A stretch of DNA of 64,000 nt from a virus: IMG/VR virus record IMGVR_UViG_3300042874_000443, positions 1-64,000 of that record. The stretch is one strand, 5' to 3'. Of this stretch, positions 8,712-59,123 are shown in pieces (the stretch's first letter is position 1; each line of letters begins with the position of its first letter). The notes beneath the pieces are model-generated. The model saw only the letters and a program-made list of their open reading frames with translations, made no database searches and was not told the DNA's origin. The translations under genes were made by a program, and so were the position numbers.

Positions 8712-9020
8712 TCACGTACTGGATGGCGGATGTGATGGTCCGGGCCGATCCCAGTCATCAAGCACGATGAACTGGTGAAATGCGCACGGTGGAAAAGGAC
8801 ATACATCGCTAGGTGTTACGATGCCGCCTTTGACCACGGTGTGATTGCTACCGAGTAGAGCAACCTTGCCGCATGTTGGGCAACACAGCTCTGCCCAGTA
8901 GGTGTTTGGGCGTCCGTTGCTGGCGCAGTGCGTAGCCCAGAATTCCAAGACACGTCGATAGGTTCCTGGGAGATGTGGATAGACCTGCTCGTTCGCGATC
9001 CGCTTGAAGCGGTACGTCAT
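8712..9020 (-). CDS. DUF6527-like Zn-binding protein
   Basis: CPTC...VTPSDVC...CAFHQFI. Confidence 0.5.
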   Translation of the reverse strand: MTYRFKRIANEQVYPHLPGTYRRVLEFWATHCASNGRPNTYWAELCCPTCGKVALLGSNHTVVKGGIVTPSDVCPFPPCAFHQFIVLDDWDRPGPSHPPSST

Positions 9021-9460
9021 CGCTTGGGGGCGTACTGCATCGCCGCATCAGGGAGATCGTGCGGCAGCTCTTTGAACTTGGGACCTACAGGCGGTTTGAG
9101 CAGCGCGGGTTTGTCGCCCGTCGCGACCACAGGCAGTCGTGCTCCGCCTCCGACAGGCCGCGATGCGATGCGGTTGAGCGCGTCGAGCGTGTACTTGTCC
9201 ATCGCAGCGAGATTCGCTTCGAGCTTGATGATGAACTCGTGTTGCGCCACGACCTGCGTTTGCAGCTCTTTCACGGATACGGCGAGTGCGGCGTAGCCTG
9301 CGGTCGCGTCGTCCTGGCTCTTCTGGTACTTTGCTTTGATCTGGTCTCGGTTCTCGAGATACGTGAACAACGCGGGCATGATGGCGACGATGACGCCGGC
9401 CACAACCGCTGCGAGGGTCTTGGTCTTCGGTCGTGACTTCTTTTCAGTGGTCTCCGTCAT
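9017..9460 (-). CDS. Membrane-anchored coiled-coil protein (possible lysis accessory)
   Basis: One TM helix plus heptad region, co-transcribed with the SLT gene. Confidence 0.55.
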   Translation of the reverse strand: MTETTEKKSRPKTKTLAAVVAGVIVAIMPALFTYLENRDQIKAKYQKSQDDATAGYAALAVSVKELQTQVVAQHEFIIKLEANLAAMDKYTLDALNRIASRPVGGGARLPVVATGDKPALLKPPVGPKFKELPHDLPDAAMQYAPKR

Positions 9461-9479
9461 GGTGTAATGATAGGCGGAT

Positions 9480-9518
9480 TTTTTTGGCCCCGACGCAAGT
9501 TACCGAACCGACTATAAT
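9480..9518. promoter_or_regulatory. Divergent promoter region with TTTTTGGCCCC motif and TATAAT
   Basis: TATAAT at 9513-9518 is 6 nt before GTG 9525; minus-strand TATCAT (9467-9472) is 6 nt before ATG 9460. Confidence 0.6.
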
Positions 9519-9524
9519 TTCCCC

Positions 9525-11039
9525 GTGAAGCCCCTCTCGTTCGCGCAGGTGTTGGATGGTCTCCTCCTGAGGGAGAAGACCGCCGAAATCTCGACGAGCC
9601 CACGCACGTTTTTCGTGCACGTACGGGTCCCGGACCATGTCGTGGAGGACCTTCGCGCGGTCCAGAAGCGGGTCATCCCGGACGAGTCGAAACACCAGGA
9701 CATCGACCACGTTACGTTGGTCTACACGAAGAAGCCCCTCGAAGACCATCCACCGGACAAGGTCTACGCTGCGCTCGAAGCACTGCGTCAGGTCGGCGAG
9801 AAGACCGAGCCCATCAACGCCAAGATCCAAGGCTGGGGCTACTTCGATGGCGCGTCGAAGGACGGCAAGACGACGACCGCGCTGGTCGCGCTGCTCGATG
9901 CACCTGGTCTCGAGCACCTGCACGTCGACATGTCCCGCGCGCTCAAGGACCTCGGCGTCACGCCGAGCGACAACCACGTGTTCACGCCGCACATCACGCT
10001 CGGCTACCTCGGCGAACACGGACGCGTGGACACGCTGCCGAAGCTCAGCGGCAACTTCACGATCGACAAGGCGCACGTCGCGTCGCGCGATCATCACGAG
10101 GTTCCGTTGAAGGGCACGGCATCGTCGATGGGGCAGAAGGCTGCCTCGTTCGCCGTCAAGGGCGCAGCGCGCGCGGGCATGCGCCAGATCCAGCAACACA
10201 TCGGTGCAGGCAACCTCGGTGCAGCGAATCGGCTCGCGACGACACCAGGCGTGCTCAAGCCTTCGGCCGCGGGCAGTCAGTTGCGCCACCTTGGGAGCGG
10301 GTCGGAAGGTACGGCAACGCTCGTCGCGCATCCCGAACACGGCGTCGCTGTGCGAAAAGTGTTCGACCCCCAAGGGTCAGCCGGACCTCTGATGGTCGCG
10401 AACAAGGCGCACATGGGACGTGCGTTGCAAGATCATCCGAACGTTGCACGTTTTTTGGGCGAGACGCCGACGCAGATTGGGCCCGCGCACTTCAGTGAGT
10501 ACGTGCACGGCACGCCAACGGCGAAAGCGCCGTCACCACTAACGAGCCTTGGCGGCGAGCCTCCCCTAGGAAAGGATACCGCGTCCGCAGCCGCCTCCGT
10601 CCGTGCAGCAGGTCCTCCGCACGGGATGGACCTGATTGATGTCGGTGAGCACAACATGATCACGACGCCGGGCAGCCAGCACAAGGTCATCGACTACATG
10701 CCCATTCCGAAGAAAGGCCCACACGGGGGACGGATGGATGTGGTTGACCGCGGCGCTGCTGCCGAAGCGGCGAATCGTCTTGGCGTCAATCACGCGCTCA
10801 CGAACTACCTCAAGGACCCAGCACGTCCAGGCAATCTGATGGCGCAGGCGTTCCGCGGGGCGCAGCCGCTCGTGCAGGAGCACAGTCCTCCGGCGAACCC
10901 GAAGTGGGCCTCGCTCGGCGAGGAAGCTGCTGCCTTCGCGATGAATCCGCGTGACGTGCAAGAGCAGCATCGCGGTTCTCCCGGCAAAGGCACGACGACG
11001 CCATCGATCGGTGGCGTTCCGCTTCAAGGGAGTCGTTGA
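9525..11039 (+). CDS. 2H phosphoesterase (Acb1/2'-5' RNA ligase-like) fused to a protein-kinase-like domain
   Basis: HVTLVY and HITLGY 2H motifs; LGSGSEG, VAVRK, HPNV, EY, DVGEHN, KVIDY kinase motifs. Confidence 0.75.
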   Translation: MKPLSFAQVLDGLLLREKTAEISTSPRTFFVHVRVPDHVVEDLRAVQKRVIPDESKHQDIDHVTLVYTKKPLEDHPPDKVYAALEALRQVGEKTEPINAKIQGWGYFDGASKDGKTTTALVALLDAPGLEHLHVDMSRALKDLGVTPSDNHVFTPHITLGYLGEHGRVDTLPKLSGNFTIDKAHVASRDHHEVPLKGTASSMGQKAASFAVKGAARAGMRQIQQHIGAGNLGAANRLATTPGVLKPSAAGSQLRHLGSGSEGTATLVAHPEHGVAVRKVFDPQGSAGPLMVANKAHMGRALQDHPNVARFLGETPTQIGPAHFSEYVHGTPTAKAPSPLTSLGGEPPLGKDTASAAASVRAAGPPHGMDLIDVGEHNMITTPGSQHKVIDYMPIPKKGPHGGRMDVVDRGAAAEAANRLGVNHALTNYLKDPARPGNLMAQAFRGAQPLVQEHSPPANPKWASLGEEAAAFAMNPRDVQEQHRGSPGKGTTTPSIGGVPLQGSR

Positions 11040-11536
11040 TGTTCGAGCGCCCTGTCTACGTGGGCGTGGGCGAATGCGACTGCAAGCGGGTCGACGCCAA
11101 GCTCTACCACGTGCTTGGAACGGACCTCGCGCATCGTCCGGTGTGCGAGATGTGTCTTGCTGTGCGCGGGTACGAAGTTCCTGTGCCGCGAACGGCGGAT
11201 GACCTCGAAGAGATCGACGGACGTCCGACGTGGAAGCCTCCGTTCACAACCCCCGAGCCGCCCGTCCATGCGGGACAGATGCGTCTTGGGCACGGCCATT
11301 TCTTTGAAGCTGTGCTCGGTAACGACGAGCAACTCGTCGGCTGGTTGCACACGCACCCCGATGCGCGCGATTCTTCGGGCATGCTCTGCCAGTCGTTCTG
11401 CGCGGTGCGTCCGCTCAACGGTACGCCTGTCCATCAGATCATCTGTGTGGACCCGCTGACGCTGCAGCCGAGTTTGCTTTGTCGAACGTGCGGCGCACAC
11501 GGGCACGTAACCAACGGACAATGGGAGCCTTGTTGA
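11036..11536 (+). CDS. DUF6527-like Zn-binding protein
   Basis: TLQPSLLCRTCGAHGHVTNGQW. Confidence 0.55.
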   Translation: MMFERPVYVGVGECDCKRVDAKLYHVLGTDLAHRPVCEMCLAVRGYEVPVPRTADDLEEIDGRPTWKPPFTTPEPPVHAGQMRLGHGHFFEAVLGNDEQLVGWLHTHPDARDSSGMLCQSFCAVRPLNGTPVHQIICVDPLTLQPSLLCRTCGAHGHVTNGQWEPC

Positions 11537-13506: not shown

Positions 13507-14223
13507 ATGGAGACCGACCTCATCAAGTTGCACAGGGCCGCAGAAGAGACAGCCCCGGATGCTCGTCTCGAGGAACGAGACGCTGCACTCGCGCGCCTTC
13601 AGCTCACGGACAAGCACGTTGTGTGCGATGTGCCCGCGTGGGGTGGGTACTTTTCGCGCGGTGTTGTGAACCCAGCGCGCGTGATCTGTTTGGACCCGAC
13701 CCCCGCGATCGTCAACTGTCCTGGTGCCAAGGTCATCGGGTCGGGCCCGCTGGAACATTCGCTCCGCACTGCAAGCGTCGACCGTCTTGTGAGCCTGGTC
13801 GGGCTTCATCACCACCCGAGACCCCAGATGTACGTCAAGGAGTCGTTCCGTGTGTTGCGGTCGACCGGTGTTGCAGTGTTCTCTGAGGTGCTCGCGGCGT
13901 CTCCTGTCGCCGTCTTCTTGAACGAAGACGTCGATCGCTACGCCCAGCGAGGACACAAAGGCATCTTCTTGCCCGTTGGAGGTCTTGCCTCACTGCTGAC
14001 AACCGCGGGGTTTCAGTCCGTGGTCGAAGAAGTGGTGAATCTGAAGTGGCGGTTCGATAACACTCTCCAGATGACACGCTTCGTTATGCGTCTCTTCGCG
14101 ATGGTGAAGGCCACCGATATGCAGGTCCAGACGGCCCTCGAGAAGTGTTTCACGATCACCAACGAAGGCGGGAAAGTCTGTTTGCCGTGGCCCTTGGTCT
14201 ACGGTGTTGGAGTGAAACCATGA
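13507..14223 (+). CDS. Class I SAM-dependent methyltransferase
   Basis: VCDVPAWGGY motif I, SVDRLVSLVGLHH, RVLRSTG. Confidence 0.65.
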   Translation: METDLIKLHRAAEETAPDARLEERDAALARLQLTDKHVVCDVPAWGGYFSRGVVNPARVICLDPTPAIVNCPGAKVIGSGPLEHSLRTASVDRLVSLVGLHHHPRPQMYVKESFRVLRSTGVAVFSEVLAASPVAVFLNEDVDRYAQRGHKGIFLPVGGLASLLTTAGFQSVVEEVVNLKWRFDNTLQMTRFVMRLFAMVKATDMQVQTALEKCFTITNEGGKVCLPWPLVYGVGVKP

Positions 14224-35459: not shown

Positions 35460-35771
35460 CTACGACCTCAGCGCGCCCATAGAGGGCGGCGGCTGTGCCG
35501 ACGGATCGCCGGCAAGTTCTGGCGGCATGCCGACAGTCGAGCCCATACCGGGCGGCGTTGGTGGCGACGTCGAAGGCATCTGCAGTGGAACGGTTCCGTC
35601 GAGCGCTGGAAGCGTTTCGCCTGGCACGTGTGACATCGGCGGCGTGTCCGTCGGCGGGATGTCCTTGCCGTGTTCGACGTCAGCCATGAACTGGTCAACC
35701 TGTGTTGGTGGGCCGAGTGCGAACTTCACGAGCGCGGCCTTGAGTCCGTTCATGTACGCCTGTTTCAACAT
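35460..35771 (-). CDS. Putative internal head protein (targeting-motif family)
   Basis: MLKQAYMNGLKAALVKFAL plus Pro-rich tail. Confidence 0.6.
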   Translation of the reverse strand: MLKQAYMNGLKAALVKFALGPPTQVDQFMADVEHGKDIPPTDTPPMSHVPGETLPALDGTVPLQMPSTSPPTPPGMGSTVGMPPELAGDPSAQPPPSMGALRS

Positions 35772-36289
35772 TAGAAGGTTCCTGACGTTGGTGCGTACAC
35801 GAGGTCGCGTCCTTCGCGGTCTCGTTTGTTCTGCTCGTGCATGCCGTACGCGAGAGCACCACCGGCGGCGAGCGCGCCGTAGCCAAGGCCCTTCCCGAGC
35901 ATCTTGCCGACGGGGCGCATGAAACGTCCTGGACCGCCGCCGCCACTACCACCGCCGCCGCTCATGCCGCCGCTGCCGCCACCGGCAGCCGCGGACCCGT
36001 GACCCTCGAACGCACGCGCAGGTGGAAGCTGCACAGGTTGCGTGTTGATGTTCGCGGCTTGCTGTTGCGCGACGCCTTTGTGCATGTCCGCCCAGGACGC
36101 GCCTTGCGGTGCAGCCGGTGCAGCGGGCGCAGCGGGGGCCTTCGGTATCGAATGAAGATCCGCATGTAGCCCCGCGATCGCAGGATGCATGGGCTTGCCC
36201 GCAGGCATGCCGATAGCCCCGCGCGCGATCTTCACGCCGAAACGTGTGAGGGCGTTGTCACGACCGCGTTGGAACGCCGCGATCAACAT
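35771..36289 (-). CDS. Putative internal head protein (targeting-motif family)
   Basis: MLIAAFQRGRDNALTRFGVKIA; Gly-zipper helix. Confidence 0.6.
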   Translation of the reverse strand: MLIAAFQRGRDNALTRFGVKIARGAIGMPAGKPMHPAIAGLHADLHSIPKAPAAPAAPAAPQGASWADMHKGVAQQQAANINTQPVQLPPARAFEGHGSAAAGGGSGGMSGGGGSGGGGPGRFMRPVGKMLGKGLGYGALAAGGALAYGMHEQNKRDREGRDLVYAPTSGTF

Positions 36290-41533: not shown

Positions 41534-42955
41534 CTACTCGGTTTTGACCTTGGTGGAGAGCGTTCCAGGGTACGCGCTGATGGCTGAGATCACCGCGGAT
41601 CCGAACGCAGAGACTGCGGCTGAGAGTGCCGCCAGTGCGATGGGCGTTGTTACGGGCGGTCCTGGAAACGCAGCACCGGCAGCGCTGGATGCTGCGGCGC
41701 CTGCGACCAGGGCGGCAGCGGCGGCACTGATGGGCGCAAAAACCTGGCTACCCACGTCAAGACCGCGCGCGACCGGCTGCACGGCGCTCTTGCCAAGCTT
41801 CACCTGAAGGCCTTCAACCGTGTTTGTACGTACCGCTGACGTCGTTGAGTCGCCGTCGACATCGGTTTTGTCGTTGCCGCCCACTTTGGTAGAGCGGTCG
41901 CCGGCGATCGCATTCGTCTGATCACCGCTGACGCCGACCTCGTGTCCGCCGCCGATAAACGTTGTTGCGTTGCCGGCGACCGAGCGCATCTCATCACCGC
42001 CCACCGACTCCGTGAAGTTCTGGTCGATCGTCGCGGCCCAATCACCGTGGATCAGTGCGACGTCGTTGCCGTCGATCGCGGCTGCGCGGTCGCCCGCTAT
42101 GTCGTGGCGAACTTGTGCGGTGCCGCTGGGACCCGACGAGATGTCGACGCCGCCTTCGCCGAAGAGTTGCACCTTGCCGTCGGACCCTGCGCGTAGACAG
42201 AACAGTAGCTTTCCTTCGGGCTCGAGGATCCGGAAGTCGAGTACGTCACCCGTCGCACCCAGGTCCAAACGGATCGTCCAGTGTTGTTCGTCGAGCCCTG
42301 TTTGTGCCGCTTGGTTGGAACCTGCTCGAAGAATGAGCGACGTCTTGCCGCGGTCGTTCTCGATGCGGAGCTGCCCGAAGTCCGTGAACTGCTGCAACCG
42401 ACGCGCGATCAAACGCAGCGTCCCTGACGGTCCGATCGACTGCACGTGCGCCGACGGGCTTCCCAGGAGTGCAACACCTCCCTCGAGCACGGCGACGTGT
42501 TGTCCCATCGAACCGACTTGCGCCCAGTCGCCCGAGCCCATGTCCGTCGGTGCGCCCGGCGGCTTGTAGTTGTTGTTGCCTTGTGTCGGTTGTGTGGGGT
42601 CGCTGTCGCCGACGCCTTCGACGCCGGTCAACGTGGGTGCGGGGATCGCCGACTGCGTCTGCCCCGGTAAGTCGATGCACCCCATGATCGTGGGAAAGCC
42701 GAGGCCCCAGAAGATGACGACCGAGGTTCCGATGGGGAGGTGGTCATATCCGGTGGCGGTCCCTTTGATCTGTGGGACGTCTTGAAGAGGACGTCCGCTG
42801 TGGGTTCGAACAACAGACGTGTGCGTCGCGGAGTTGTACGCGAGGACTTCGCCTAGTTCGTAGAGGCCGACTGCGCCTTGGGGTTCGCCCGTACGCGCCA
42901 GCCCGGCTGAGCCCATGTTGGCGGCACCTCGTGGTGGGCTGAGCGGGTCCTTCAC
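41534..42955 (-). CDS. Baseplate central spike (gp5/VgrG-like)
   Basis: N-terminal OB-fold-like region and 8-residue VxGxxxxx beta-helix repeats. Confidence 0.75.
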   Translation of the reverse strand: MKDPLSPPRGAANMGSAGLARTGEPQGAVGLYELGEVLAYNSATHTSVVRTHSGRPLQDVPQIKGTATGYDHLPIGTSVVIFWGLGFPTIMGCIDLPGQTQSAIPAPTLTGVEGVGDSDPTQPTQGNNNYKPPGAPTDMGSGDWAQVGSMGQHVAVLEGGVALLGSPSAHVQSIGPSGTLRLIARRLQQFTDFGQLRIENDRGKTSLILRAGSNQAAQTGLDEQHWTIRLDLGATGDVLDFRILEPEGKLLFCLRAGSDGKVQLFGEGGVDISSGPSGTAQVRHDIAGDRAAAIDGNDVALIHGDWAATIDQNFTESVGGDEMRSVAGNATTFIGGGHEVGVSGDQTNAIAGDRSTKVGGNDKTDVDGDSTTSAVRTNTVEGLQVKLGKSAVQPVARGLDVGSQVFAPISAAAAALVAGAAASSAAGAAFPGPPVTTPIALAALSAAVSAFGSAVISAISAYPGTLSTKVKTE

Positions 42956-46558: not shown

Positions 46559-48916
46559 TTACGCGACGAGGTGCAGTTCGATGACGTTGAGCGGCTTCGG
46601 CAGGCCGATCGCGCAGTAGATGAGCACGCGGTCGCCTGACGTCGGCGAGACGTCGAGGCTCGTGATCTCGAACGACGTCAGCGGCGCACCGATCTTGGCG
46701 ACCGTGCGCAGAAGCAGCAACTGCGACCCCGTGATAAGAGCACCGTGGAGCTGCGTCAGCGTGTCGACGGTGACGTTGTACTGGCCGAGGAAGTCTTCGA
46801 GGATGTCGACGAAGAACAGCGACACGAAGTCGAAGTTCTTGACGACCGAGAACTCCCCCGACTCGAGCGTCGACGGGTCGGTGGTGAGCTGGTGGATCGT
46901 GTACGGCAGCGACGTTGTCGTCTGCTGCGCGAACACGTACCAGCCACCGTTCGAGATGTCGGTGAGCTGGCTGTCGGTGAAGTACGTGTTCGAGTTGAAG
47001 ATCTGGCTGACACCGGCGATGCCGATGTTGGTGAACCCCTGCTGCGACGGAAGGCCCGCCGTCATGCCGCCGACCGCACACGCCAGGTAGAACCCAGGCT
47101 GGTTGTCGCCGTCGGTCACGCCCGCGACGTCGCAACGATCCGGCCACACGAGGATCGTGCGCTTGGAGTTGAACGACTGTGCGACCGCGACCAGGTCCGT
47201 CACCTGCTGGCTCTTCGAGAGCGTGCGAACGATCTGGAAGTTGATCGTAGTGAGGCCGACGAGAGCGCCGCCAATGCGCTTCACGCCGTGGGGCAGCTCG
47301 TTCATGACCGTCGAGCTGTCCTGGCCGTTGTTCACGATCTGCAGGCGCTGGTCACTGATGACGTTGTTCACGACAAGCGTCGTGAATACCGTCGCATCCG
47401 TGATCGTGGCGTTGGGGTCGACGGGGATCTGGATCAGGTCACCCGCAGCGACGCCGCTCGCGACGAACGTCCCGCTCGGGTCCTTCAGGATGAGGTAGAG
47501 GTCGTCGCCCGCGGCTGTCGTCGTACCGACGAGAGGTGCCGATGCGATGCGCACGGTGACACCATCCGCCTCGAGAATCGCGCAGGTGATGTCAACGGCG
47601 CCTGCGCTCGCGAACGGCGTCGCCGTGTCGACTTCGAGAATCGCAGCCGTGGCCACCGACGCGATCGGATAGTCGCCGAGCGCGACCACACCCGCTGCAC
47701 TGGTCACGGTGACACGCAAGATGTCACTCGGGATCACGCCGTTGGTGATGAGGCTCGCGATGCCCGTGAGCGTGATGCGGACGATCGCGGTTGGCGCAGT
47801 GCCGGCAACCTGGATTGATTCACCCGTTGCCGATGGTTCGATGATCGTCTTGGTGATGGGCAGCGTGCCGTTGCCGATGACGACACGGAAGCGCTGCGGA
47901 CGGCCGTGCACGTCGTCAGGCAGTGCAAGCCCGACGCAGTCCGAGTTCCACATCGCGAAGATCGGGATGTCGGTCGTCAGCGGGATGATGGCGTAGATGT
48001 CCGGGCGCGCGGAGATGAGGTCACGCACTTGCGTGTGCCCCACCAGGTCATCTGACAGCACGCCGATGAACTGCACGACTGAGGTCGTGTTTTGGAGCGC
48101 CACGAACGCACCCGCGGCGAGCGGGTTGCGCGCGTCGATGCGCCCGATCTTCGAGAGGATCTCGTCCGTGGATTCGATCGTGTCGAGATCCACGAGGTCC
48201 TGACGGAGCGAGATGTACTGCTCGTAGACCACCGCGTACGACACCACGTGGGTGCCCTGGTTGGTGACCGGCAACGTCACACCGCCCGAGATTCGGGTGA
48301 TGTTTCCGTTGGTGGTGACGAACGACGAATCGATCTGGACGTCGTTGATCTGACGCTCGATGCGGAACACCTGCGCGATGCCCGGAACGAACAGGCCGCC
48401 GGTGACGTCCGAGGTCACCGTGAGCTGTGTGTCCGACACGACGGAGGCGACCGTGCGCGAGATGAAGTTCACGCCGTCCGAGATCGTGATGCGGTCGCCT
48501 GGCAGCACGCGCGTGTTGCCGGTGTTCCACAGCGCGGTTGCCGAATCGATCACGTTCGGCGTGGCGACGGTGGTGACGCCGTCTGCGCCGCTTGCGATGA
48601 TCACGCGCGCGTTGTCGAAGAAGATCGCGACACTGTCACCGTCGAGCAGGGCTCCCACCTCGTTGTTGGGGGGCTCCGCCACGACGATGTAGTTCGGCCC
48701 CACGGGAGTTGCCGTTGCCGGGTTCCCTTCGAGCACGCCGTAGGGCGTCGCCACCAGGATGTCGGCCTTGTCGGCGTAGTCCGTGGTTCCAGGTTCGAAG
48801 TAGTCCTGGATGTGGAAGGCCGGGCCCACCACGAGGCAGTTGAGATCCGGGGACGTCGGCGTAACCGTCGGCGTGGCCAGGTCCTGGTAAACAAGTACGA
48901 CCGGTCGAATGGCCAT
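46559..48916 (-). CDS. Tail sheath protein
   Basis: 785 aa; MAIRP.V.VYQ start; YLACAVGG, FTDSQL..I..GG, HQLTTD, EFSVVKNFDF, PLNVIELHL C-terminus. Confidence 0.8.
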   Translation of the reverse strand: MAIRPVVLVYQDLATPTVTPTSPDLNCLVVGPAFHIQDYFEPGTTDYADKADILVATPYGVLEGNPATATPVGPNYIVVAEPPNNEVGALLDGDSVAIFFDNARVIIASGADGVTTVATPNVIDSATALWNTGNTRVLPGDRITISDGVNFISRTVASVVSDTQLTVTSDVTGGLFVPGIAQVFRIERQINDVQIDSSFVTTNGNITRISGGVTLPVTNQGTHVVSYAVVYEQYISLRQDLVDLDTIESTDEILSKIGRIDARNPLAAGAFVALQNTTSVVQFIGVLSDDLVGHTQVRDLISARPDIYAIIPLTTDIPIFAMWNSDCVGLALPDDVHGRPQRFRVVIGNGTLPITKTIIEPSATGESIQVAGTAPTAIVRITLTGIASLITNGVIPSDILRVTVTSAAGVVALGDYPIASVATAAILEVDTATPFASAGAVDITCAILEADGVTVRIASAPLVGTTTAAGDDLYLILKDPSGTFVASGVAAGDLIQIPVDPNATITDATVFTTLVVNNVISDQRLQIVNNGQDSSTVMNELPHGVKRIGGALVGLTTINFQIVRTLSKSQQVTDLVAVAQSFNSKRTILVWPDRCDVAGVTDGDNQPGFYLACAVGGMTAGLPSQQGFTNIGIAGVSQIFNSNTYFTDSQLTDISNGGWYVFAQQTTTSLPYTIHQLTTDPSTLESGEFSVVKNFDFVSLFFVDILEDFLGQYNVTVDTLTQLHGALITGSQLLLLRTVAKIGAPLTSFEITSLDVSPTSGDRVLIYCAIGLPKPLNVIELHLVA

Positions 48917-49698: not shown

Positions 49699-50541
49699 TC
49701 AGTACAGTTGCGGCGTTGTAGCAGGGTCCACGAGAAGCTTGTATTCGACAGAGTTACGGCCTAGCAACGAAGTAGATAGTTTCTGATGTACGGTGACGCT
49801 CTTCAGCTCCGTGTGATGAACACGTTGAACCTGATAGCGGTCATTACGTACCAGGTCGACCACGATGTCCTTGTACTCGACAAGTGGGTAGTCCAGGATG
49901 TTGAAGTCCGCGAGTCGAACATCACTGTCGCCATGCGCCATGATGTTCGTTTCAACGGTTGCGGCTTCACGCCTTCCACGGATGAGTGTCGGCGTCCAAT
50001 ACCCGCCCACGAACGATGTGCCGAAGCAGACCAGACAATGCTCGAGAGTCGACTCCTTGTTCACAGGGTCGTAGCACTCGGGACAACGGTCGCCCCAACG
50101 GCGGCGCTTGAGCAAGATGAGCGGGATGCCGTTGAGGTTCTTGTAGCCGACCGCCTGGTCGTGAAGGATCTTGCGTTTGAACAGACGCGTCCGTCTGTCG
50201 AGGCCGGGCTCCACAGGTTCCGGATGACTGTGGAACTCGTTTGCGGAACCCGACGGGGGTGTGACCGTGACCTGGTAGTAGATCACGCGCGCGAGTGAGA
50301 ACAGGTTGACGCCTTCACGTCCCGCGTTGCGGGGGTCCGCGGGAGGCAAGTTGAATTGATCGTCGACGAAGTTGTATGCGTCACGTAGTCCTGTTGCGAT
50401 CGATTCCCAAGGACCGTCTGGACCTTGCGCACGTGCGATGTCGACGAAGAACGACCCGCTCTCCTCTGATTCAACGTCCCACTGCACGAACACGGCGGTC
50501 GGGAACAACGCGGTGGTCCGCGTGATGTGGACGTCAGCCAA
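49699..50541 (-). CDS. Neck / head-closure protein
   Basis: RCPECYD...CLVCFGTSFVGGY; position between head and tail genes. Confidence 0.5.
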   Translation of the reverse strand: MADVHITRTTALFPTAVFVQWDVESEESGSFFVDIARAQGPDGPWESIATGLRDAYNFVDDQFNLPPADPRNAGREGVNLFSLARVIYYQVTVTPPSGSANEFHSHPEPVEPGLDRRTRLFKRKILHDQAVGYKNLNGIPLILLKRRRWGDRCPECYDPVNKESTLEHCLVCFGTSFVGGYWTPTLIRGRREAATVETNIMAHGDSDVRLADFNILDYPLVEYKDIVVDLVRNDRYQVQRVHHTELKSVTVHQKLSTSLLGRNSVEYKLLVDPATTPQLY

Positions 50542-51325
50542 GAGCCGCCGGCCCCGGCTCAGGATCGCCGAAACCGCCCCCGATGTTGGTTGTGTCGACG
50601 GGGTTATCGAACTCGCGGAACATGCGATCGATGCGTTGCTCGCCTTCAGCGCCCCAGCCGACAGGGGGCGACAGGCGCGTGCGGCGTTCTTCGTACGGGT
50701 TCACTGTCGGACCGCGCTGCTCGTGCATCGAGTGGCCTTCGGAACCGGGGAGCATGAAGTCGGCGAGCTTGCGCGCGACCTTGTGTAGTCCGCCCGTCAT
50801 CCGCCCCGGCTCATCAGCGCTGTTGCGAATGCCTTGGTGGCGGAACAGATCCGCGAACGCGGACCCCGCTTGTTCGTCTGCAGGGCGTCCATCACGCGTG
50901 CGTGCGAGCGCGGAGTCCGCCGTCGTTGCCGAGTGGTAGTGCGGGCTCGTCGACGGGTTGTTCTGTTGCGACGGATCGCCGCCCAGCATGCCCATGTTGA
51001 AGTCCGCGGCCTTCACGGGAATCGTGCGCGGCTTGTCGCACGGACCGTAGTGCTTCGTCTTGCGACACGTCGTGCACATGTCTTCGGCCGACAGCTTTCG
51101 GATGGGTTCCGAACGCGACTGTCCCTGCTCGTGCGCACTGAAGATCTGCGCGACCTGCTGTGGATCGGTCGGCGCCGACAGGTTCTGCTGCGCGGTTTGC
51201 GACAGCGTGGGCGATGTCGGCTGCGTGATGGTCGCGACGTTCGGATTCGTGGGCGCGGGAAACCCCAGCTTGTAGCGCGCGAGCGCCGCGAGCTGTCCGT
51301 CTGCGTATGACAACTCGAGGGTCAT
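50534..51325 (-). CDS. Putative internal head protein (targeting-motif family)
   Basis: LELSYADGQLAALARYKL; KAADF, KLADF, IDRMF. Confidence 0.6.
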   Translation of the reverse strand: MTLELSYADGQLAALARYKLGFPAPTNPNVATITQPTSPTLSQTAQQNLSAPTDPQQVAQIFSAHEQGQSRSEPIRKLSAEDMCTTCRKTKHYGPCDKPRTIPVKAADFNMGMLGGDPSQQNNPSTSPHYHSATTADSALARTRDGRPADEQAGSAFADLFRHQGIRNSADEPGRMTGGLHKVARKLADFMLPGSEGHSMHEQRGPTVNPYEERRTRLSPPVGWGAEGEQRIDRMFREFDNPVDTTNIGGGFGDPEPGPAALG

Positions 51326-51726
51326 GGCGCGACAACATCCCCTGGGAGCGGCATGCTGCTCGTCGCGTAGTCGTCGTCGTTTCGTTGAAACGCTCGGTCG
51401 ATCACGCTGCGTTGCCGACGTCCTGTGTCTTCAGGTTCCCCAGCTTGCGCGCCTGCTCCGTCGGTGGAGGTCGAAGCACCCATCCCAACGTTGGACGCCT
51501 TCTTGAGCTTGGGAACGAAGTCGTAGTCGCTCTCGACCTTGTTCGCACCGAGCGGCGACGGCACACTGGGCGGCGGGATTGGAGGCAAGTCGCTCGCCTT
51601 CGGCAACTGAATCCCAACGGACTTGAAGCCCGGCTGCTTGAAGCCGCCCTCCGCTGTTTTCACCACGCCGAAGGCCGCGAGCGCTGCGCGCCCGCCCTCG
51701 ACAGCTCTCTGGCGCAACAGCGACAT
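51322..51726 (-). CDS. Putative internal head protein (targeting-motif family)
   Basis: RAVEGGRAALAAFGVVKTA; IDRAF. Confidence 0.6.
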   Translation of the reverse strand: MSLLRQRAVEGGRAALAAFGVVKTAEGGFKQPGFKSVGIQLPKASDLPPIPPPSVPSPLGANKVESDYDFVPKLKKASNVGMGASTSTDGAGAQAGEPEDTGRRQRSVIDRAFQRNDDDYATSSMPLPGDVVAP

Positions 51727-51736
51727 GGGGTGGTTG

Positions 51737-51913
51737 TTACTTCTGCGGCGTGCGGAACAGGCTGTTGAGCGGGTTCGCGGCGACCTTCGGTGCTTCGATG
51801 AGGCCGAGCGCTTCGGCTTCCTTGCGGACTTCTTCGGCGGTCTTGTAGCCAGCGCGCGCGAGGGCCTGCTGGACGCCGTACTCGTGCGCGGTCTTCAGGT
51901 GGGTGTTCGACAT
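51737..51913 (-). CDS. Small internal head protein (58 aa; not in ORF track)
   Basis: MSNTHLKTAHEYGVQQALARAGYKTAEEVRKEA; leaderless TATAAT. Confidence 0.65.
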   Translation of the reverse strand: MSNTHLKTAHEYGVQQALARAGYKTAEEVRKEAEALGLIEAPKVAANPLNSLFRTPQK

Positions 51914-51934
51914 GGTTGAATTATAGGGCGAATT

Positions 51935-52222
51935 TCACCCAATGACTTCTTGTCCGAACGTTCCATCTGCACGACCGGGCGCGATCTGGTCGTACGTCGT
52001 GAAGTGGTCCCACAACCAGTCCGGCATGTTGGCGCGCGCTGCGCCCGCTGATGCCGCCGAGGCGCCATCCCCCGGTGTTTCACGACGGGCGTATGGAATA
52101 CGGTCGGTTCCGTGGCTGACCTCGTCGCCCTTGGGTGCAACGCCGGCGTCCGCGCCCATCGCGTTGGCGAACTTCGCGAAGGCCGCACGCGTACCGCGCG
52201 CGTATGCGGCGCGTAACGTCAT
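51935..52222 (-). CDS. Putative internal head protein (targeting-motif family)
   Basis: MTLRAAYARGTRAAFAKFAN. Confidence 0.6.
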   Translation of the reverse strand: MTLRAAYARGTRAAFAKFANAMGADAGVAPKGDEVSHGTDRIPYARRETPGDGASAASAGAARANMPDWLWDHFTTYDQIAPGRADGTFGQEVIG

Positions 52223-52698
52223 GAGTGATTGAACCTCGAGACGTTCCGGTAGCCGGAGCTGAGCGTTGCGTACGCAGCTTCCATGTTGTTCTGTGTCTTC
52301 ACACCACGCGTCAGCTCATCCCATTCGGCCTTGAGCTGTTGTGCGAGCTGCGAATAGAGCTGCGCCTTGTCCGAGATTCCGATGGGCGCGATGTCGCCGT
52401 CTTGAACGGTTGCTTGATTGCGCGCTTGCATGAACGATTCGCTCATGAGCAGGAAGCGCGTGGTGCCGATCAGCAACAGATACCGTAGCTGTGGCGGGAA
52501 GTTTGACGGCGTGAAGTTCGTCTGTGGCGTCACCGTATTGAACGCACTCGCAGCCATTTCGAGCGCCAGGTTCAATTCGACATCCGTGAACTGCACGTCA
52601 TCCAGCAGGATGTTGTTGTTCGCGTAATCACGCATGAACATGCGGACCTGGTCTTTGGAGACCACCGTCGGTGTTGTTGGTGTACCGACGATCGGCAT
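52219..52698 (-). CDS. Head-tail adaptor
   Basis: VRMFMRD...FTDVELNLAL; position after capsid genes. Confidence 0.55.
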   Translation of the reverse strand: MPIVGTPTTPTVVSKDQVRMFMRDYANNNILLDDVQFTDVELNLALEMAASAFNTVTPQTNFTPSNFPPQLRYLLLIGTTRFLLMSESFMQARNQATVQDGDIAPIGISDKAQLYSQLAQQLKAEWDELTRGVKTQNNMEAAYATLSSGYRNVSRFNHS

Positions 52699-53204
52699 CA
52701 GCGCACGTACGTCTTCTCGAGGCTCGCGACGACCTGCGCGATCTGCGCGGCACCCGAAGCGGTGGTGACGATACGGATCGCTTGATACGGCAGGAGGATG
52801 GTCTTGAACCGTGCTTCGTCGAGCGCGATGAAGCGGACGCCGGTGGCTTGTTCGATGATGATCGCTTCCCCTGCTAGGATTGCAGGTAGGTCATCGTTGA
52901 TCGTCGCCGGGTTGAGGTTCACGAGCGATACAGTGATGTCGCCGGCTGCTCCCAGGTCGACATGGATCTGACTACAGACCAGCGACTCGACGTTGTTCCA
53001 GAAGAACAGTCCGCCGCCACTCGCTGCGAGAGACGCGTACTTGTAGCAACTGTTGCCGGGCTGCAGCGGACTGTCCGCACGCACGGCGCCCAGCTGCGGC
53101 AGCGCGCCCGTGAACGTCTGTCCGGCCGCGACCTGCTGCTGGATCGCCGTCGAGATGGACTGCGCAACACGCGACGTGACCGGAGTGATCGACGGGGAAG
53201 CCAT
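52698..53204 (-). CDS. Virion structural protein
   Basis: TACAAT promoter upstream; in head cluster. Confidence 0.5.
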   Translation of the reverse strand: MASPSITPVTSRVAQSISTAIQQQVAAGQTFTGALPQLGAVRADSPLQPGNSCYKYASLAASGGGLFFWNNVESLVCSQIHVDLGAAGDITVSLVNLNPATINDDLPAILAGEAIIIEQATGVRFIALDEARFKTILLPYQAIRIVTTASGAAQIAQVVASLEKTYVR

Positions 53205-53232
53205 GGGATGCCTCTATTGTAGGGGTGGGCGC

Positions 53233-53637
53233 TTACTTGCGCGAGCGCTTGACCGGCGGCTCGGGCATCGGAGGAGGCTCCGACGCTGCTTCGGGCTCGG
53301 GCTCCTTGGTGCGCTCGACGAGCGTTTCGACCTCGGCAGGCGGCATCACCTGCGTGGCCTCGGGCGTGACCGCAACAGGCGCGGGCGGTGCGGGCGGCGG
53401 CGGGGGTGCAACGACCGCAGCCTTGGGCGCTGCGACGGCGCCAACCGCGGTCACGCTGACCCAGTTCGCCTTCTTCACGCGTTCGACGATCTCGTGCTCC
53501 GCGGTCTCGGCGGAGATCGTCTTGCTGGCGCCTTGGCTTCCTGCAGGATGCAGAACGAGCGCTACGCCGTTCTCGTCTTGCAGGGGTGACAGCGAAAGGA
53601 TGCTGCCCTGCTTGTTCGTGATCGTGAAGTTCGACAT
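53233..53637 (-). CDS. Head-associated protein with Pro/Glu-rich tail
   Basis: AGGAG RBS; follows MCP. Confidence 0.6.
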   Translation of the reverse strand: MSNFTITNKQGSILSLSPLQDENGVALVLHPAGSQGASKTISAETAEHEIVERVKKANWVSVTAVGAVAAPKAAVVAPPPPPAPPAPVAVTPEATQVMPPAEVETLVERTKEPEPEAASEPPPMPEPPVKRSRK

Positions 53638-53664
53638 GGGTGTCTCCTGTTGCTGAAACGACGA

Positions 53665-53707
53665 AGGCCTTCTTCCTGTGTCCCCAAGCAAGGGAGGAAG
53701 AAGGCCT
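53665..53707 (-). terminator. Stem-loop after the major capsid gene
   Basis: 13-bp stem AGGCCTTCTTCCT/AGGAAGAAGGCCT with a weak T-tail. Confidence 0.55.
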
Positions 53708-53734
53708 CAGCCTACCCTGGGGCAGGGGCGAAGA

Positions 53735-54670
53735 TCAGACGAACGGCAGGTCGATGCGCTGCGTCGCCAGCGTGTTGCCGATACCGATGCCCGGAGCTGC
53801 GTAGCTCCAGAACTCGATGATGTCGGCTTCCTGCTTGATGTACAGGGTTGCGTCCTGCAGCAGGAAGAACACGCCGAGGTAGTTCTGCGGCGCGAACACG
53901 TAGACCGAGCGGCGCGTGCCGCCGGCGACGTCGTCGACGATCTCGCGCTTGATGGTCGAGACCACCGGGATGCCCCACAGCTTCTCCTCGGCCTCGATGC
54001 CGAGGTCGTAGTGGCGCGACGCGACGTCGTTGCCGACGCTGGTCGCCGGCAGGTCGAGCGCCTCGTAGTACGTCGACTTGCTCATCAGCAGCTTGCCGAT
54101 GGGCTGGCGACGGTTGACGAGGCCCTGGAAGCCGAGCTTGAACGCGCTCGAGTTGAACGCACCCGCCGCCGTGATCTGCGCCGGCGCCAACGCGAGGATC
54201 GCGTTGATGGTGTCGGTGAACTTCGTGTCCTCCTGGTCGGCCATGTCCTTGACCGAGTTGTCGGACAGGATCTTGCGGATGTCGTTCTGGTACGTCATCA
54301 GCTCGAACTTGTTCTTGGTGAAGCGCTGCGACTCCGTCTTGCCGAAGTAGACGGAGAAGCGGCGACCACGGAACCACGTACGCTGCGCGGTGCCGTTGAA
54401 CGGCACGAACGTGGCGACGGAGTCGGGCTCCTTCTCGACGATCTTCTTGGGCTGGTCGGTGTTCTCGTCGCGATCGATCTCGTCGTCCGCCAGCATGACT
54501 GGCTCGATGATCTCGCGCGCGAAGGACTCCTGACGGAGCTTCTGGCGGATGAAGGCGGTGCCTTCGGCTTCGGCTTCTTTCGTCCGTCCATCCTCGACCT
54601 TGCGGACGAAGTTGGAGTTGATGAACTGAGCCGAGACCTGCTGGGTCTGTGTCTTGTACGCTGCCGACAT
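53735..54670 (-). CDS. Major capsid protein
   Basis: 311 aa, strongly biased codons, FIRQKLRQESFAREII, DMADQEDTKF, VYVFAPQNYLG, GIGIGN; downstream stem-loop. Confidence 0.75.
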   Translation of the reverse strand: MSAAYKTQTQQVSAQFINSNFVRKVEDGRTKEAEAEGTAFIRQKLRQESFAREIIEPVMLADDEIDRDENTDQPKKIVEKEPDSVATFVPFNGTAQRTWFRGRRFSVYFGKTESQRFTKNKFELMTYQNDIRKILSDNSVKDMADQEDTKFTDTINAILALAPAQITAAGAFNSSAFKLGFQGLVNRRQPIGKLLMSKSTYYEALDLPATSVGNDVASRHYDLGIEAEEKLWGIPVVSTIKREIVDDVAGGTRRSVYVFAPQNYLGVFFLLQDATLYIKQEADIIEFWSYAAPGIGIGNTLATQRIDLPFV

Positions 54671-54698
54671 GGTGTGTGGTTCTCCTTAGTCCGGGGGC

Positions 54699-55163
54699 TC
54701 AGAGGGCTGCGGTATCGCCGCCGGTGTAGAACACGACGATCGTGCCGTCGGTCGCGGTGTTGTCCTGGAGGACCTCACCGATGATCTGGTTGGTGGCGAC
54801 AGCGACCTGCCACTTGCCGGCGCTGAACGTCAGCTTGGTGCCCGGTGTGTAGACGCCCGCGTTGAAGTTCGACGGGTCGAGCTTGAACTCCGCGTTCATG
54901 CGGAGGCCGACGACCTTGTGGACGAACTGCGAGGAGAAGTCGTCGTTGCCGGCGACCACGATCCACGTTGAGACCGGGTTGGTCGTCGCGCGGTTCGGGG
55001 TCGTCGCTGCGACGGCCTTGCCCGTGGCATTGACCGTGACGACCGTGCCCATGGGCAGGAGGTCATCCACGTTGGGTACGGTCTGGTTGATGATGAAGGA
55101 TTCGTCGATTGCGCCTTCACGTGGCCAACCGCGCAGAACGTCGAACTTGCTGTTCAGGATCAT
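54699..55163 (-). CDS. Capsid decoration/cement protein
   Basis: Directly upstream of MCP; YTPGTKLT...IIGEV pattern. Confidence 0.55.
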   Translation of the reverse strand: MILNSKFDVLRGWPREGAIDESFIINQTVPNVDDLLPMGTVVTVNATGKAVAATTPNRATTNPVSTWIVVAGNDDFSSQFVHKVVGLRMNAEFKLDPSNFNAGVYTPGTKLTFSAGKWQVAVATNQIIGEVLQDNTATDGTIVVFYTGGDTAAL

Positions 55164-55187
55164 GTGAGTCTGCCTCCGGGAAGTGCG

Positions 55188-55541
55188 CTACGAGATGATG
55201 AACTTGAGAAACCGCTCGTCTGCAGCGTCCGCTGCTTCCTTCACGGTCTGAGGTTGGTGGTCTGCTTCCGTCGTCGCACCTGCGCCGAGCGGAGTCACGA
55301 TACCGGCTTGCTTGGACAGCAGGTCTTCGACCACATCGAGGGATGCGTCGTCGGCCTTGGCCAGCTTCTGACGGACGATGTCCGGCAGTTCTTCGCCGTG
55401 CGTCGCGACGTGCACCGCCGCGATCTTGTCGAGACGCACCTGGCGTGCGGCTGCGACGGACGAAGTCTTCTCGCTTTCGACCTGGTCGACATAGTCGGCC
55501 ATGGCGTCGAATACAGCGGCGAGCTTGGCGTGTTCAACCAC
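55188..55541 (-). CDS. Scaffold-like head protein
   Basis: Helical; EKTS, KIA, KLA, KQA, KEA; ADERFLKFIIS C-terminus. Confidence 0.55.
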   Translation of the reverse strand: MVEHAKLAAVFDAMADYVDQVESEKTSSVAAARQVRLDKIAAVHVATHGEELPDIVRQKLAKADDASLDVVEDLLSKQAGIVTPLGAGATTEADHQPQTVKEAADAADERFLKFIIS

Positions 55542-55689
55542 GAATGCCTCCGAGCTTGGAGCGGAGTGTTCCGAAGCCGGCCGCCGCGACGAGTACGGCT
55601 GCCGCCTTCTCCTTGCGGATCTCGGCGTGCTTCGCGCCCTGCGTACGCAGGTCGCTGGCGATCGAGCGGAGCATCTCGGAGTCCTTCAT
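55534..55689 (-). CDS. Small head protein (51 aa; not in ORF track)
   Basis: MKDSEMLRSIASDLR...EKAAAVLVAAAG. Confidence 0.55.
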   Translation of the reverse strand: MKDSEMLRSIASDLRTQGAKHAEIRKEKAAAVLVAAAGFGTLRSKLGGIRG

Positions 55690-55901
55690 GGCGTCCCCAT
55701 GAGATCATCGTACGACACATCGTTCGACGCCGTGCGAATCTCGTTGGCGAGTGCGCGCAGGCCGCGCGCCATCTCGGTCTTGGGTTGTGCGGCCGCGACC
55801 TTGATCGCCGTCGCTTCGGCGGTCTTGCGATGTGTTGCTTCGTTCGCTGCGGCGAGAACCTCGTCCACGACCAGCGACAGGTGTTGCTGCGCGCGGCTCA
55901 C
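55686..55901 (-). CDS. Small head protein
   Basis: KTA, KVA; coupled. Confidence 0.6.
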   Translation of the reverse strand: MSRAQQHLSLVVDEVLAAANEATHRKTAEATAIKVAAAQPKTEMARGLRALANEIRTASNDVSYDDLMGTP

Positions 55902-56173
55902 GGCATGCCTCGATGCGTGTACGAGTGGAGCGCATCAATGATCTGCGGTCCGGCCATGCCGGTCGCCATGCCCGCGCCGAAGGAGGTGTTGCGCGCGCGC
56001 TCGCGCTCTTTTTCGTCGTGCGCATGCGTGAGCAGCGCACCGAGACCGGCGCCGCCAAGCGCACCGGCTCCACCCGCGAGCAGCGCTTTGACGAGCGCTG
56101 GGTTCTCGGCGGTCTTCGTCTCGGCCGCCTGCTTGAGGCGACCGACGACGTCGATGTGGACGAGGTTGGACAT
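55898..56173 (-). CDS. Glycine-zipper head protein
   Basis: KQA, KTA; AGGAGALGGAGLG. Confidence 0.6.
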   Translation of the reverse strand: MSNLVHIDVVGRLKQAAETKTAENPALVKALLAGGAGALGGAGLGALLTHAHDEKERERARNTSFGAGMATGMAGPQIIDALHSYTHRGMP

Positions 56174-56178
56174 GTGGT

Positions 56179-56763
56179 TCAGCGCGCGCTCTCGATGATC
56201 GCGAGCGTGTCCTTGAAGCCGCTGACGAAGGACTCGCTCGCGGCCTTGTGGATCTGCTCGACGGTGTCGTTCCAGCCCTTGGCGTATGCCGCCTCGGCGA
56301 GCTTCTCGAGCTGCTGCGTGGTGGCAGAGAAGCCCAGCTCCGCGGCCTCCTTGACCAGTTCGGGGTTCTCGGCAGCGAACTTCTCGAAGTCCGATGTCCC
56401 CCCTGCAACTGCGGCGGTCTTGGTGGGCTGCGTGGCGGCGACCTTTGCGGCTGCCTCCTGGTACTGCGCACCGCGCGCCATGAAGCCGTCCATCACAGCG
56501 GCGCCGTAGAGCTGCGCCTCCTTGACGAGTGCTTCGTGCTCGGCCTTGCTCAGGTCGGCGGCGATCTTGGTGAGGTCCTCGACCGGCGAGGCTTGGCTCG
56601 CGGTCTTGGCTTGTGGCGCCGTGGCTTCCTTGAGCGCCTGCTTGAGGCGTTCGCCGGCGTCGCTCGATGGAGACGACGATCCCGACGGCGTGGCTGCGGG
56701 CGCCGCAGCGCTCGCGGTCTTTTCGCCGCCTTTGATCATCCCGAGTGCGTCTGAGAGCTTCAT
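56179..56763 (-). CDS. Scaffolding-like protein
   Basis: Ala/Glu helical with about 10 K-x-A sites; own promoter (TATCAT). Confidence 0.6.
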   Translation of the reverse strand: MKLSDALGMIKGGEKTASAAAPAATPSGSSSPSSDAGERLKQALKEATAPQAKTASQASPVEDLTKIAADLSKAEHEALVKEAQLYGAAVMDGFMARGAQYQEAAAKVAATQPTKTAAVAGGTSDFEKFAAENPELVKEAAELGFSATTQQLEKLAEAAYAKGWNDTVEQIHKAASESFVSGFKDTLAIIESAR

Positions 56764-56821
56764 GGGTTGCCGTCTCCAGTTACGGTGAAAATGATAGGGG
56801 GCTGTTCACTGAAAAACAAAC

Positions 56822-59121: not shown

Positions 59122-59123
59122 GA

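Follow-up and report, generated by a model that had tools for sequence, protein, structure and literature searches.

The gene considered here lies at positions 9525-11039 of a viral DNA stretch of 64,000 nucleotides (nt), referred to below as the window, which forms the first 64 kb of the IMG/VR record IMGVR_UViG_3300042874_000443, a single virus contig of 157,408 bp with 61% GC, classed as linear and estimated to be 84% complete. The source phage is myovirus-like. The gene encodes a protein of 504 amino acids (aa) in which a phosphoesterase domain of the 2H superfamily is followed by the core of a protein kinase and by a conserved tail, and it is proposed, tentatively, that this protein is a small polyvalent effector that would be packaged as protease-cut head cargo. 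The features found at the locus are as follows, AF2 standing for AlphaFold models and pLDDT for their predicted local distance difference test.

9466-9473, minus strand: mirror box CTATCATT, 6 nt ahead of the start of the divergent gene 9017-9460, which codes for a membrane protein.
9512-9519, plus strand: promoter box CTATAATT of the -10 type, 6 nt before the GTG of the fusion gene.
9525-11039, plus strand: whole open reading frame (ORF), 504 aa, GTG start; 2H phosphoesterase, C-lobe-less kinase and tail.
9525-9605, plus strand: N-terminal extension (residues 1-27), a short helix and then coil, ending in the conserved E-K-T-A-x-I-S-T.
9606-10124, plus strand: LigT/ThpR-like 2H phosphoesterase domain (residues 28-200), predicted from two H-x-T motifs, Pfam PF13563 and the AF2 fold.
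10125-10166, plus strand: junction SMGQKAASFAVKGA (residues 201-214) with K205-A-A and K212-G-A, a degenerate copy of the leader helix of stand-alone kinases.
10167-10733, plus strand: kinase module (residues 215-403), two N-terminal helices, N-lobe and catalytic core, stopping after D390-Y-M.
10734-10898, plus strand: small helical subdomain (residues 404-458, ~55 residues) at the position of a kinase C-lobe; AF2 helices at model residues 196-236, pLDDT 94-98.
10899-11036, plus strand: conserved tail (residues 459-504) with P-K-W-A, SLGEEAAAFAMNPRD and a disordered end with PGKG...QGS; AF2 pLDDT 46-70.
11039-11536, plus strand: partner gene, 165-166 aa, Cys-rich, translationally coupled to the fusion gene by a TGATG overlap; phrog_15183.

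The GTG of the ORF is the first start following a stop codon, and a third-position GC of 0.76, typical for coding DNA in this genome, marks the coding frame. Eight metagenomic proteins, 64-74% identical to the 504-aa protein, can be aligned with most or all of it, the majority from the same start. An earlier sequence-only reading of this DNA had described the product as an Acb1-like phosphodiesterase fused to a kinase; the ORF and each motif that it quoted are present where it had placed them. Scans of bacterial and archaeal genomes gave no relatives of either the kinase or the entire protein, and hence no prophage copy and no clue to the host.

On its profile matches and its model, the N-terminal domain is predicted to be a 2H phosphoesterase of the LigT/ThpR branch and not a member of the Acb1 family. 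Its two motifs are HVTLVY (H62/T64) and HITLGY (H156/T158); all of the 68 relatives have H62, H156 and T158, at least 90% of them have T64, and with both H-x-T motifs retained the domain appears catalytically intact. Pfam 2_5_RNA_ligase2 (PF13563) covers residues 36-191 (E 3e-11, 44 bits against a cut-off of 27) and LigT_PEase (PF02834) reaches 29.1 bits against a cut-off of 23.3. The AF2 model has a mean pLDDT of 90.8, and the bilobed alpha+beta 2H fold is present both in it and in the structural comparison by VIA. The latter aligned the model with the cyclic phosphodiesterase (CPDase) of D. radiodurans (drCPDase, 5h7f) at Z 17.8, with a root mean square deviation of 2.9 over 165 residues and 21% identity, and with the LigT proteins of E. 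coli (4qak, Z 16.5) and P. horikoshii (Z 16.1) and Usb1 (Z 15.4); Acb1 7t27 came at rank 15 (Z 10.8, 132 residues), after the LigT, Usb1, AKAP18 and ASCC1 groups. The order was the same in Foldseek, where drCPDase 5h7e was the top match at 8e-10 and Acb1 stood at rank 20 with 3.7e-5. Searched with the family profile of the 2H domain, the PDB gave drCPDase alone (E 4e-7) and, at E <=1, no Acb1 chain, and the Pfam Acb1 model (PF23474) gave 25.0 bits (E 1.8e-5), under its cut-off of 27. The fold is therefore nearer to the LigT RNA-repair enzymes, an outcome that the earlier reading had itself named as refuting it, and its Acb1 label has to be given up as a family assignment. With the LigT/ThpR structures (5h7e/5h7f; 4qak/5ldm) the domain has in common the 2H fold over ~165 residues, two H-x-T motifs and a similar size, and they are its best profile and fold match; it differs from them in being fused to a kinase and in having a conserved 27-residue N-terminal extension. 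Acb1 (the T4 gp57B family; FBB1 7t26/7t27) is likewise a phage-encoded member of the 2H superfamily, and degradation of immune nucleotides is plausible here too, but Acb1 stands alone with ~140-150 aa, whereas this 2H domain is LigT-sized (~175 aa) and fused. Since the 2H fold does not in itself fix the substrate, the domain may still degrade signals. A further article, PMC12287305, deals with a metallophosphoesterase and has no bearing on this protein. The N-terminal extension, outside the fold match that starts at about residue 26, keeps K18, A20 and I22 in at least 90% of the 68 relatives and is modelled with a helix at residues 6-14 (pLDDT 59-73).

The second domain is predicted, from the family profile and the model, to be a Hanks-derived kinase core in which the residues for ATP binding and phosphotransfer are kept and the substrate-binding C-lobe has been lost. 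The core spans residues 245-403 and holds GSGSEG (257-262), K278, HPNV (304-307), E325-Y, D372-x4-N377 and D390-Y. E261, D372, N377 and D390 do not vary among 117 aligned relatives, at least 90% of which also have each of K278, E325 and the G-loop glycines. The profile of these relatives matches PknA of M. tuberculosis (E 1.7e-10) and also PknB, with the HPN segment, the hinge, the D-x4-N and the DFG-like Asp in register, so that the complete set of kinase-like motifs claimed earlier is borne out. In the AF2 model (pLDDT 87, core above 95) the resemblance is to PknA/PknB in Foldseek (4e-7) and to PknE (Z 13.4, model residues 40-183) and Rio2 (Z 11.6) in VIA, and the viral structure library BFVD returned generic kinases only. 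All the structural alignments with kinases end by model residue ~195, that is, protein residue ~403, and the activation segment, APE and alphaF-alphaI are missing from the module. Hence, while the module has the G-loop, the beta3 Lys, the HPN-type alphaC-beta4 segment, the hinge E-Y-V-x-G, the D-x4-N and the DFG-like D-Y of PknA/PknB/PknE, it differs from them in lacking those C-lobe elements and the catalytic-loop Lys, and in giving no Pfam Pkinase match.

Pfam Pkinase (PF00069) did not match this protein even at E <=10, and it was reached by a single one of the 117 relatives (E 4.9e-4), which indicates that no Pfam model covers the family. With residues 200-504 as a single sequence, Pfam, PHROGs and the PDB returned no useful match, the kinase being detectable with the family profile only; armadillo-repeat matches to the same residues were discarded as noise (E >1). 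A scan of 1.84 billion representatives yielded 170 clusters (50% identity) of the kinase family, mostly proteins of ~280-380 aa with the module at the N-terminus. They were found on phage or metagenome contigs only, and pattern scans of bacterial and archaeal genomes gave none. The parallel that had been drawn with the T7 kinase is not sustained at the level of structure, as fold and profile resemble Hanks-type PknA/PknB and not gp0.7, and no T7 kinase chain was among the matches listed. As a precedent for the function of the kinase half it keeps its interest, the T7 kinase being reported in a 2026 article (PMC13645617) to disarm bacterial defences broadly.

The protein is built of separable units. 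BLAST of the relatives against the query resolved three of them, at residues 1-210 (2H), 212-450 (kinase) and 450-503 (tail); the first is found at 60-75% identity in ~65 clusters, and the tail is also carried by kinase-less relatives (P0010-P0019). The space that separates 2H domain and tail is filled in relatives by a cupin, by DUF5661 or by a weak GNAT-like region, or is empty, and a string of 2H, GNAT-like, DUF5661 and kinase modules is also among their architectures. Related contigs of 104-188 kb are syntenic at the locus, with an SLT-type lysin and a membrane protein on one side and the partner gene on the other, and differ in the middle module, so the locus acts as a cassette site. The middle module would thus be an exchangeable cassette, occupied by the kinase here and by a cupin, a GNAT-like region or DUF5661 in syntenic relatives. 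DUF5661 (E-x-E-H-T ... D-H-L-x-E-D-P-x-Y-Y-x-K-L; Pfam DUF5661 and DUF6321) is the commonest filler between 2H domain and tail (P0009-P0011, P0063 and others); in P0005 and P0009 it directly precedes the K-x-A that heads the kinase. A literature search on DUF5661 gave no paper.

The edges of these units are marked by short Lys-containing segments. REKTA (16-20), GQKAASFAVKGA (203-214) and LGEEAAAFA (464-472, with K460-W-A before it) are conserved and lie at the domain edges of the AlphaFold models, and a motif [SA]-L-G-x-[KE]-A-A-x-[FA]-A is repeated after the 2H domain and at the opening of the tail in nearly all family members. With boundaries set from the predicted folds, the four K-x-A (K18, K205, K212, K460) all fall among the 6 inter-domain Lys and none among the 22 Lys within folds (hypergeometric p ~7e-4). 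Each of them is kept in 8-9 of the 9 sequences of an alignment that includes this protein (A1). The junction of P0008 reads LGVQAAKFA and then ARAGM, and where the K-F-A of this type has become S-F-A, an additional (E)K-x-A sits before ARAGM. In the kinase family at large, K-x-[ASG] before A-A-R-x-G heads the module in 109 of 111 relatives.

The same tripeptide is frequent in the head proteins of the phage. The structural and related genes of the contig to which reference is made are the following.

41534-42955, minus strand: baseplate hub gene.
46559-48916, minus strand: tail sheath gene.
50534-64000 of the window and on to 67410 of the contig, minus strand: head block, enriched in K-x-A.
56179-56763: scaffold-like gene g56179, with a promoter box upstream.
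56822-58564, minus strand: gene for the head-maturation (putative prohead) protease, assigned by PHROG 18299 alone.
67965-74975 of the contig: phage multisubunit RNA-polymerase genes, within the virion-strand block.

In 18 head-block proteins K-x-A accounts for 32% of the Lys residues, as compared with 10% in all other proteins of the phage, an approximately threefold enrichment (Fisher p 2.6e-20), and the controls K-x-S, K-x-L and R-x-A showed no difference between the two sets. Counted over the whole proteome, the tripeptide KTA is seen 38 times where 16 would be expected, and the scaffold-like protein 56179-56763 has three of these copies. The motif SLGx[KE]AAxFA is at chance level elsewhere in the proteome, and it is absent from distant protease-containing polyproteins and from gp7 of Microbacterium phage ValentiniPuff. 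The putative prohead protease itself gave no PDB match by sequence and no Pfam match. A 1021-aa head-block protein at 62266-64000 (minus strand, on to 65331) has a Pro/Gly/Met-rich low-complexity region of ~250 residues and two KKKSDSGD repeats.

A second tie to the head proteins is a leader helix. Nine virion-block proteins of the genome start with the helix AYxxGxxxALxK[FI]A, and a hidden Markov model (HMM) made from those nine N-termini alone matches the N-termini of many stand-alone kinase relatives in other phages (best E 6e-6), as well as an internal site just ahead of the P0061 kinase (E 8e-5). The reciprocal HMM, made from kinase N-termini only, has as its top matches in the genome the virion-block proteins g35460 (E 1.3e-5) and g51935 (1.9e-4), which indicates that the kinase family bears the same tag as the virion-block proteins. 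The carriers of the helix, at least nine small and otherwise unrelated proteins, are located at 35460-36289 and 50534-52222 of the window and at 65732-70607 of the contig; the gene at 65899-67410 starts probably at its internal Met60, where the leader helix begins. The junction of the protein studied here is a degenerate leader, two residues longer. The earlier claim that its boundary segments resemble sites in head proteins is upheld as regards their conservation and their position at domain edges, but the leader-helix HMM of the virion block gives them no score.

Relatives of the 2H domain are fused to head proteins. In gp7 of ValentiniPuff, annotated as a capsid maturation protease and encoded after the portal and MuF genes, a 2H domain is fused to an XkdF-type protease. 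Three related contigs (L013, L015, L017) encode polyproteins of 986-1766 aa in which a related 2H domain is combined with a C-terminal XkdF-type prohead protease (Peptidase_S78_2), their further domains being an ATP-dependent DNA ligase, or a Dam methylase with a weak match to the LigD 3'-phosphoesterase. In P0071 a portal domain precedes the 2H domain. As for the kinase, a stand-alone relative lies between a homologue of g75382 and RNA-polymerase genes in one contig (L023), and beside a g75382 homologue in another (L021). The link of the family to virion proteins thus consists of portal and protease fusions and of the RNA-polymerase neighbourhood in relatives, this gene itself sharing the promoter type only. 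The giant polyvalent proteins, which combine 2H with ligase or methylase domains, are located as follows.

L013, 9371-14668: giant polyvalent protein.
L015, 9824-13126: giant polyvalent protein.
L017, 2-2959: giant polyvalent protein.
L012, 9143-12337: giant polyvalent protein.

Polyvalent proteins of phages and conjugative elements were defined by Iyer et al. 2017 (J Bacteriol; PMC5512222), who predicted that they are packaged, processed and injected. The repertoire described there includes 2H domains, GNATs and kinases without the C-terminal subdomain, with active-site residues and a Glu before strand 2; it also has fusions of 2H domains with portal or MuF, and large forms that end in an assemblin-type peptidase. 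The present protein carries two effector-type domains of that repertoire in one phage polypeptide, its E261 corresponds to the Glu before strand 2, and its relatives add GNAT-like, cupin, Dam methylase, DNA ligase and LigD phosphoesterase modules. It differs in having two enzymes only and no peptidase of its own. Furthermore, the kinases of that study have a conserved Gln in the last N-lobe strand and a His...Asp insert, neither of which is seen in the consensus of this family; the source genomes there were prophages of Verrucomicrobia or Bacteroidetes, here high-GC uncultured myophages of ~160-190 kb; and leader-like helices with K-x-A between modules, a feature of this protein, are unmentioned in that article, in whose text the word linker does not occur. 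Judged by its domains, the protein fits the polyvalent class, from which it departs in its small size, kinase details and leader/K-x-A punctuation. Another polyvalent architecture is that of the metagenomic P0165 (1682 aa), in which a C-lobe-less kinase (1129-1248) is accompanied by a LigD 3'-phosphoesterase, a weak match to a DNA-ligase OB domain and a SNF2 helicase.

The expression signals of the gene are of the kind found at virion genes. TATAAT occupies 9513-9518 and no Shine-Dalgarno sequence precedes the GTG; the spacing of 6 nt between the CTATAATT box and the start implies a leaderless mRNA. The box, with <=1 mismatch and within <=80 nt upstream, was found before 12 genes of the genome, among them the sheath gene g46559, the scaffold-like g56179, the leader-tagged virion-block genes g51737, g70131 and g36293, and the divergent gene 9017-9460. 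Box and 6-nt spacing to GTG are kept at the orthologues in six related contigs (L002, L003/L009, L004, L005, L006, L007). A generic sigma-70 promoter scan made no call at the start of the fusion gene because the -35 element is missing. The late-type TATAAT promoter noticed earlier is accordingly a true member of a type shared with sheath, scaffold-like and leader-tagged virion-block genes, and its type and conservation support the view that the fusion gene, as a leaderless mRNA, is co-expressed with virion genes. The 64-bp divergent region 9461-9524 contains two mirror-image CTAT[AC]ATT boxes, each 6 nt from a start codon, on both sides of a T-run. Between them the T-run is followed by GGCCCCGA, and the same T-run-GGCCCCGA element lies ahead of the box at 31605. 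Both divergent genes (9017-9460 and 9525-11039) would yield leaderless mRNAs, one of them beginning with GUG.

In the phage T4, the internal proteins and Alt are brought into the head, unrelated as these enzymes are, by a short common N-terminal helix that ends at a site for the gp21 prohead protease, and are then ejected. The stand-alone kinase relatives, which carry a shared helix, would follow a similar logic. The T4 cargo motif is L/I-x-E, whereas that of the present phages is AYxxGxxxALxK[FI]A with K-x-A, and in the 504-aa protein the tags are internal and degenerate. The preferred reading, to which we give somewhat less than even chances, is that the gene encodes a small polyvalent effector packaged as protease-cut head cargo. 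Its modules would descend from separate leader-tagged head-cargo proteins. The fusion protein would be loaded into the prohead and cut at K-x-A by the prohead protease, giving a short peptide besides a phosphodiesterase and a kinase of ~190 and ~250 aa, respectively, and the fragments would enter the next host together with the phage DNA. There, the 2H enzyme would destroy nucleotide-type immune signals, or 2',3'-cyclic-phosphate or 2'-5' RNA ends, and the kinase would phosphorylate host proteins ahead of any phage gene expression. The leader of the kinase relatives, the portal and protease fusions of the 2H domain and the K-x-A enrichment of the head block render head packaging plausible; the support for a packaged and cut cargo is circumstantial. 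A possible but doubtful extension to the whole lineage is that of a plug-and-play head cargo, in which each module, alone or strung together with others, has its own helix ending in K-x-A and is cut by a K-x-A-specific prohead protease, so that a LigT-like phosphodiesterase and a minimal kinase would be delivered, besides the RNA polymerase, before gene expression.

Several observations weigh against packaging and cleavage. The leader HMMs, run on the protein's own N-terminus, junction and tail, did not rise above shuffled controls, and across the 2H family their sole significant match was P0061. The link of this protein to the leader is therefore made by position and through the intermediates P0008 and P0061, not by statistics. 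That the leader means packaging and that cleavage occurs at K-x-A are themselves hypotheses, and a literature search found no report of a prohead protease of Lys-x-Ala specificity. The gene is 23-55 kb away from those for head and tail, stands on the plus strand, opposite to theirs, and is surrounded by non-structural genes. No paralogue of any part of the protein (N-terminus, 2H domain, linker, kinase, tail) was found elsewhere in the 157-kb genome, and the tail is consequently not a tag common to other proteins of the same phage. Among cultured phage records, tblastn found a homologue in ValentiniPuff only, hence none in the cultured relative Arash; the virion proteome of the latter lists 116 proteins and does not discriminate in the matter of packaging, because ribonucleotide reductase is also among them. 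The kinase activity on which the mechanism would depend is likely, not assured, since the catalytic loop of the clade has no Lys/Arg at D+2 and this protein, unlike most of its close relatives, has a His at the position of the alphaC Glu. Finally, the late promoter fits a cytoplasmic late function too.

Such a function is the serious rival. According to it, the protein is a late bifunctional enzyme that stays in the cytoplasm and is never packaged or cut, its linkers being merely helical leftovers of module shuffling; we consider this unlikely on the whole, and equally so the roles that it would then have, either the protection of late infection (for instance from abortive infection set off by proteins of the capsid, portal or tail) or the remodelling of host metabolism. 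The position of the gene outside the virion block, the failure of the leader HMMs on its linkers and an overall K-x-[AG] content no higher than expected (6 in the 504-aa protein against 6.2) are all in its favour. So is the operon formed with the partner gene, whose product is JAB/DUF6527-like, a type tied to ubiquitin-like defence acting on late structural proteins. The partner is kept in synteny in L002-L005, L007 and L009-L011 and partly in L008, no homologue being found in L006. Five of six orthologues gave sub-threshold matches to JAB, Prok-JAB and DUF6527, the JAB/MPN match with an HTHPD motif and the DUF6527 match at the C-terminus. Against BubE clusters the partner reached an Atlas score of 0.90 with 194 shared features, DUF6527 being named BubE in newer Pfam. 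Its product could be a de-conjugating peptidase directed against ubiquitin-like defence, or a processing enzyme for its neighbour.

Downstream of the partner, the variable segment 11538-15632 (plus strand), which lies between that conserved gene and position 16289, encodes a class I methyltransferase (13507-14223) and two further proteins, one of 651 aa, matched by phrog_5596 only, and one of 495 aa without matches. The syntenic relatives have no homologues of these three, and the segment therefore looks like an accessory island; in its likeness to an accessory or anti-defence island this methyltransferase-bearing region is a further point for the cytoplasmic role. What speaks for packaging instead is that the four conserved K-x-A lie exactly at the domain edges, that an extra (E)K-x-A occurs before A-R-A-G where K-F-A was lost, that the kinase family carries the virion-block leader and that related 2H domains are fused to head proteins.

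It is improbable that the 2H domain is a true Acb1 orthologue whose main activity would be the hydrolysis of the cyclic di- and trinucleotides of CBASS (cyclic oligonucleotide-based antiphage signalling systems). The Acb1 structures do align with the model, the Pfam Acb1 match has some significance for all that it stays under the cut-off, PF23474 is entered in precomputed tables for the protein and for some of its relatives, and 2H enzymes that degrade immune nucleotides are known in phages and eukaryotic viruses. Against this, LigT/ThpR-type structures fit far better (Z 16-18, with a TM of 0.7 versus 0.56), the profile finds drCPDase and not Acb1, and the domain has ~175 aa against ~140 aa in Acb1. 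A role in RNA end-healing against anticodon or other RNA nucleases, in which the 2H domain would open the 2',3'-cyclic phosphate and the kinase would phosphorylate the 5'-OH for sealing by a host ligase, is very improbable: the closest folds are indeed RNA 2',3'-cyclic phosphodiesterases, and the pairing of CPDase and kinase recalls the healing half of Trl1-type tRNA ligases (jumbo-phage review PMC7824862), but the kinase has a protein-kinase fold and not the P-loop polynucleotide-kinase fold, neither RNA_ligase PF09414 (Rnl2-type) nor RtcB was found in the contig, of 84% estimated completeness (the search for Rnl1, PF09511, lacked a working control and is uninformative), the replacement of the kinase by a cupin, GNAT-like region or DUF5661 in syntenic relatives indicates that 2H and kinase are not an obligate pair, and Iyer et al. 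(PMC5512222) argue likewise for 2H domains without a ligase partner.

Should the packaging of the protein as head cargo not hold, the locus would still be a clear instance of a late phage enzyme with two functions, whose 2H domain should not be labelled Acb1. If it does hold, the protein would be a compact example of how phages pre-load counter-defence enzymes in the capsid, an idea that until now has been based chiefly on domain architectures. The large, Pfam-less kinase family, having only the catalytic half of a Hanks kinase, would represent a natural minimal kinase, useful for enzymology and for the study of how phage kinases disarm defences. Moreover, the conserved linkers around an exchangeable middle module suggest how phages may shuffle their effector cassettes.

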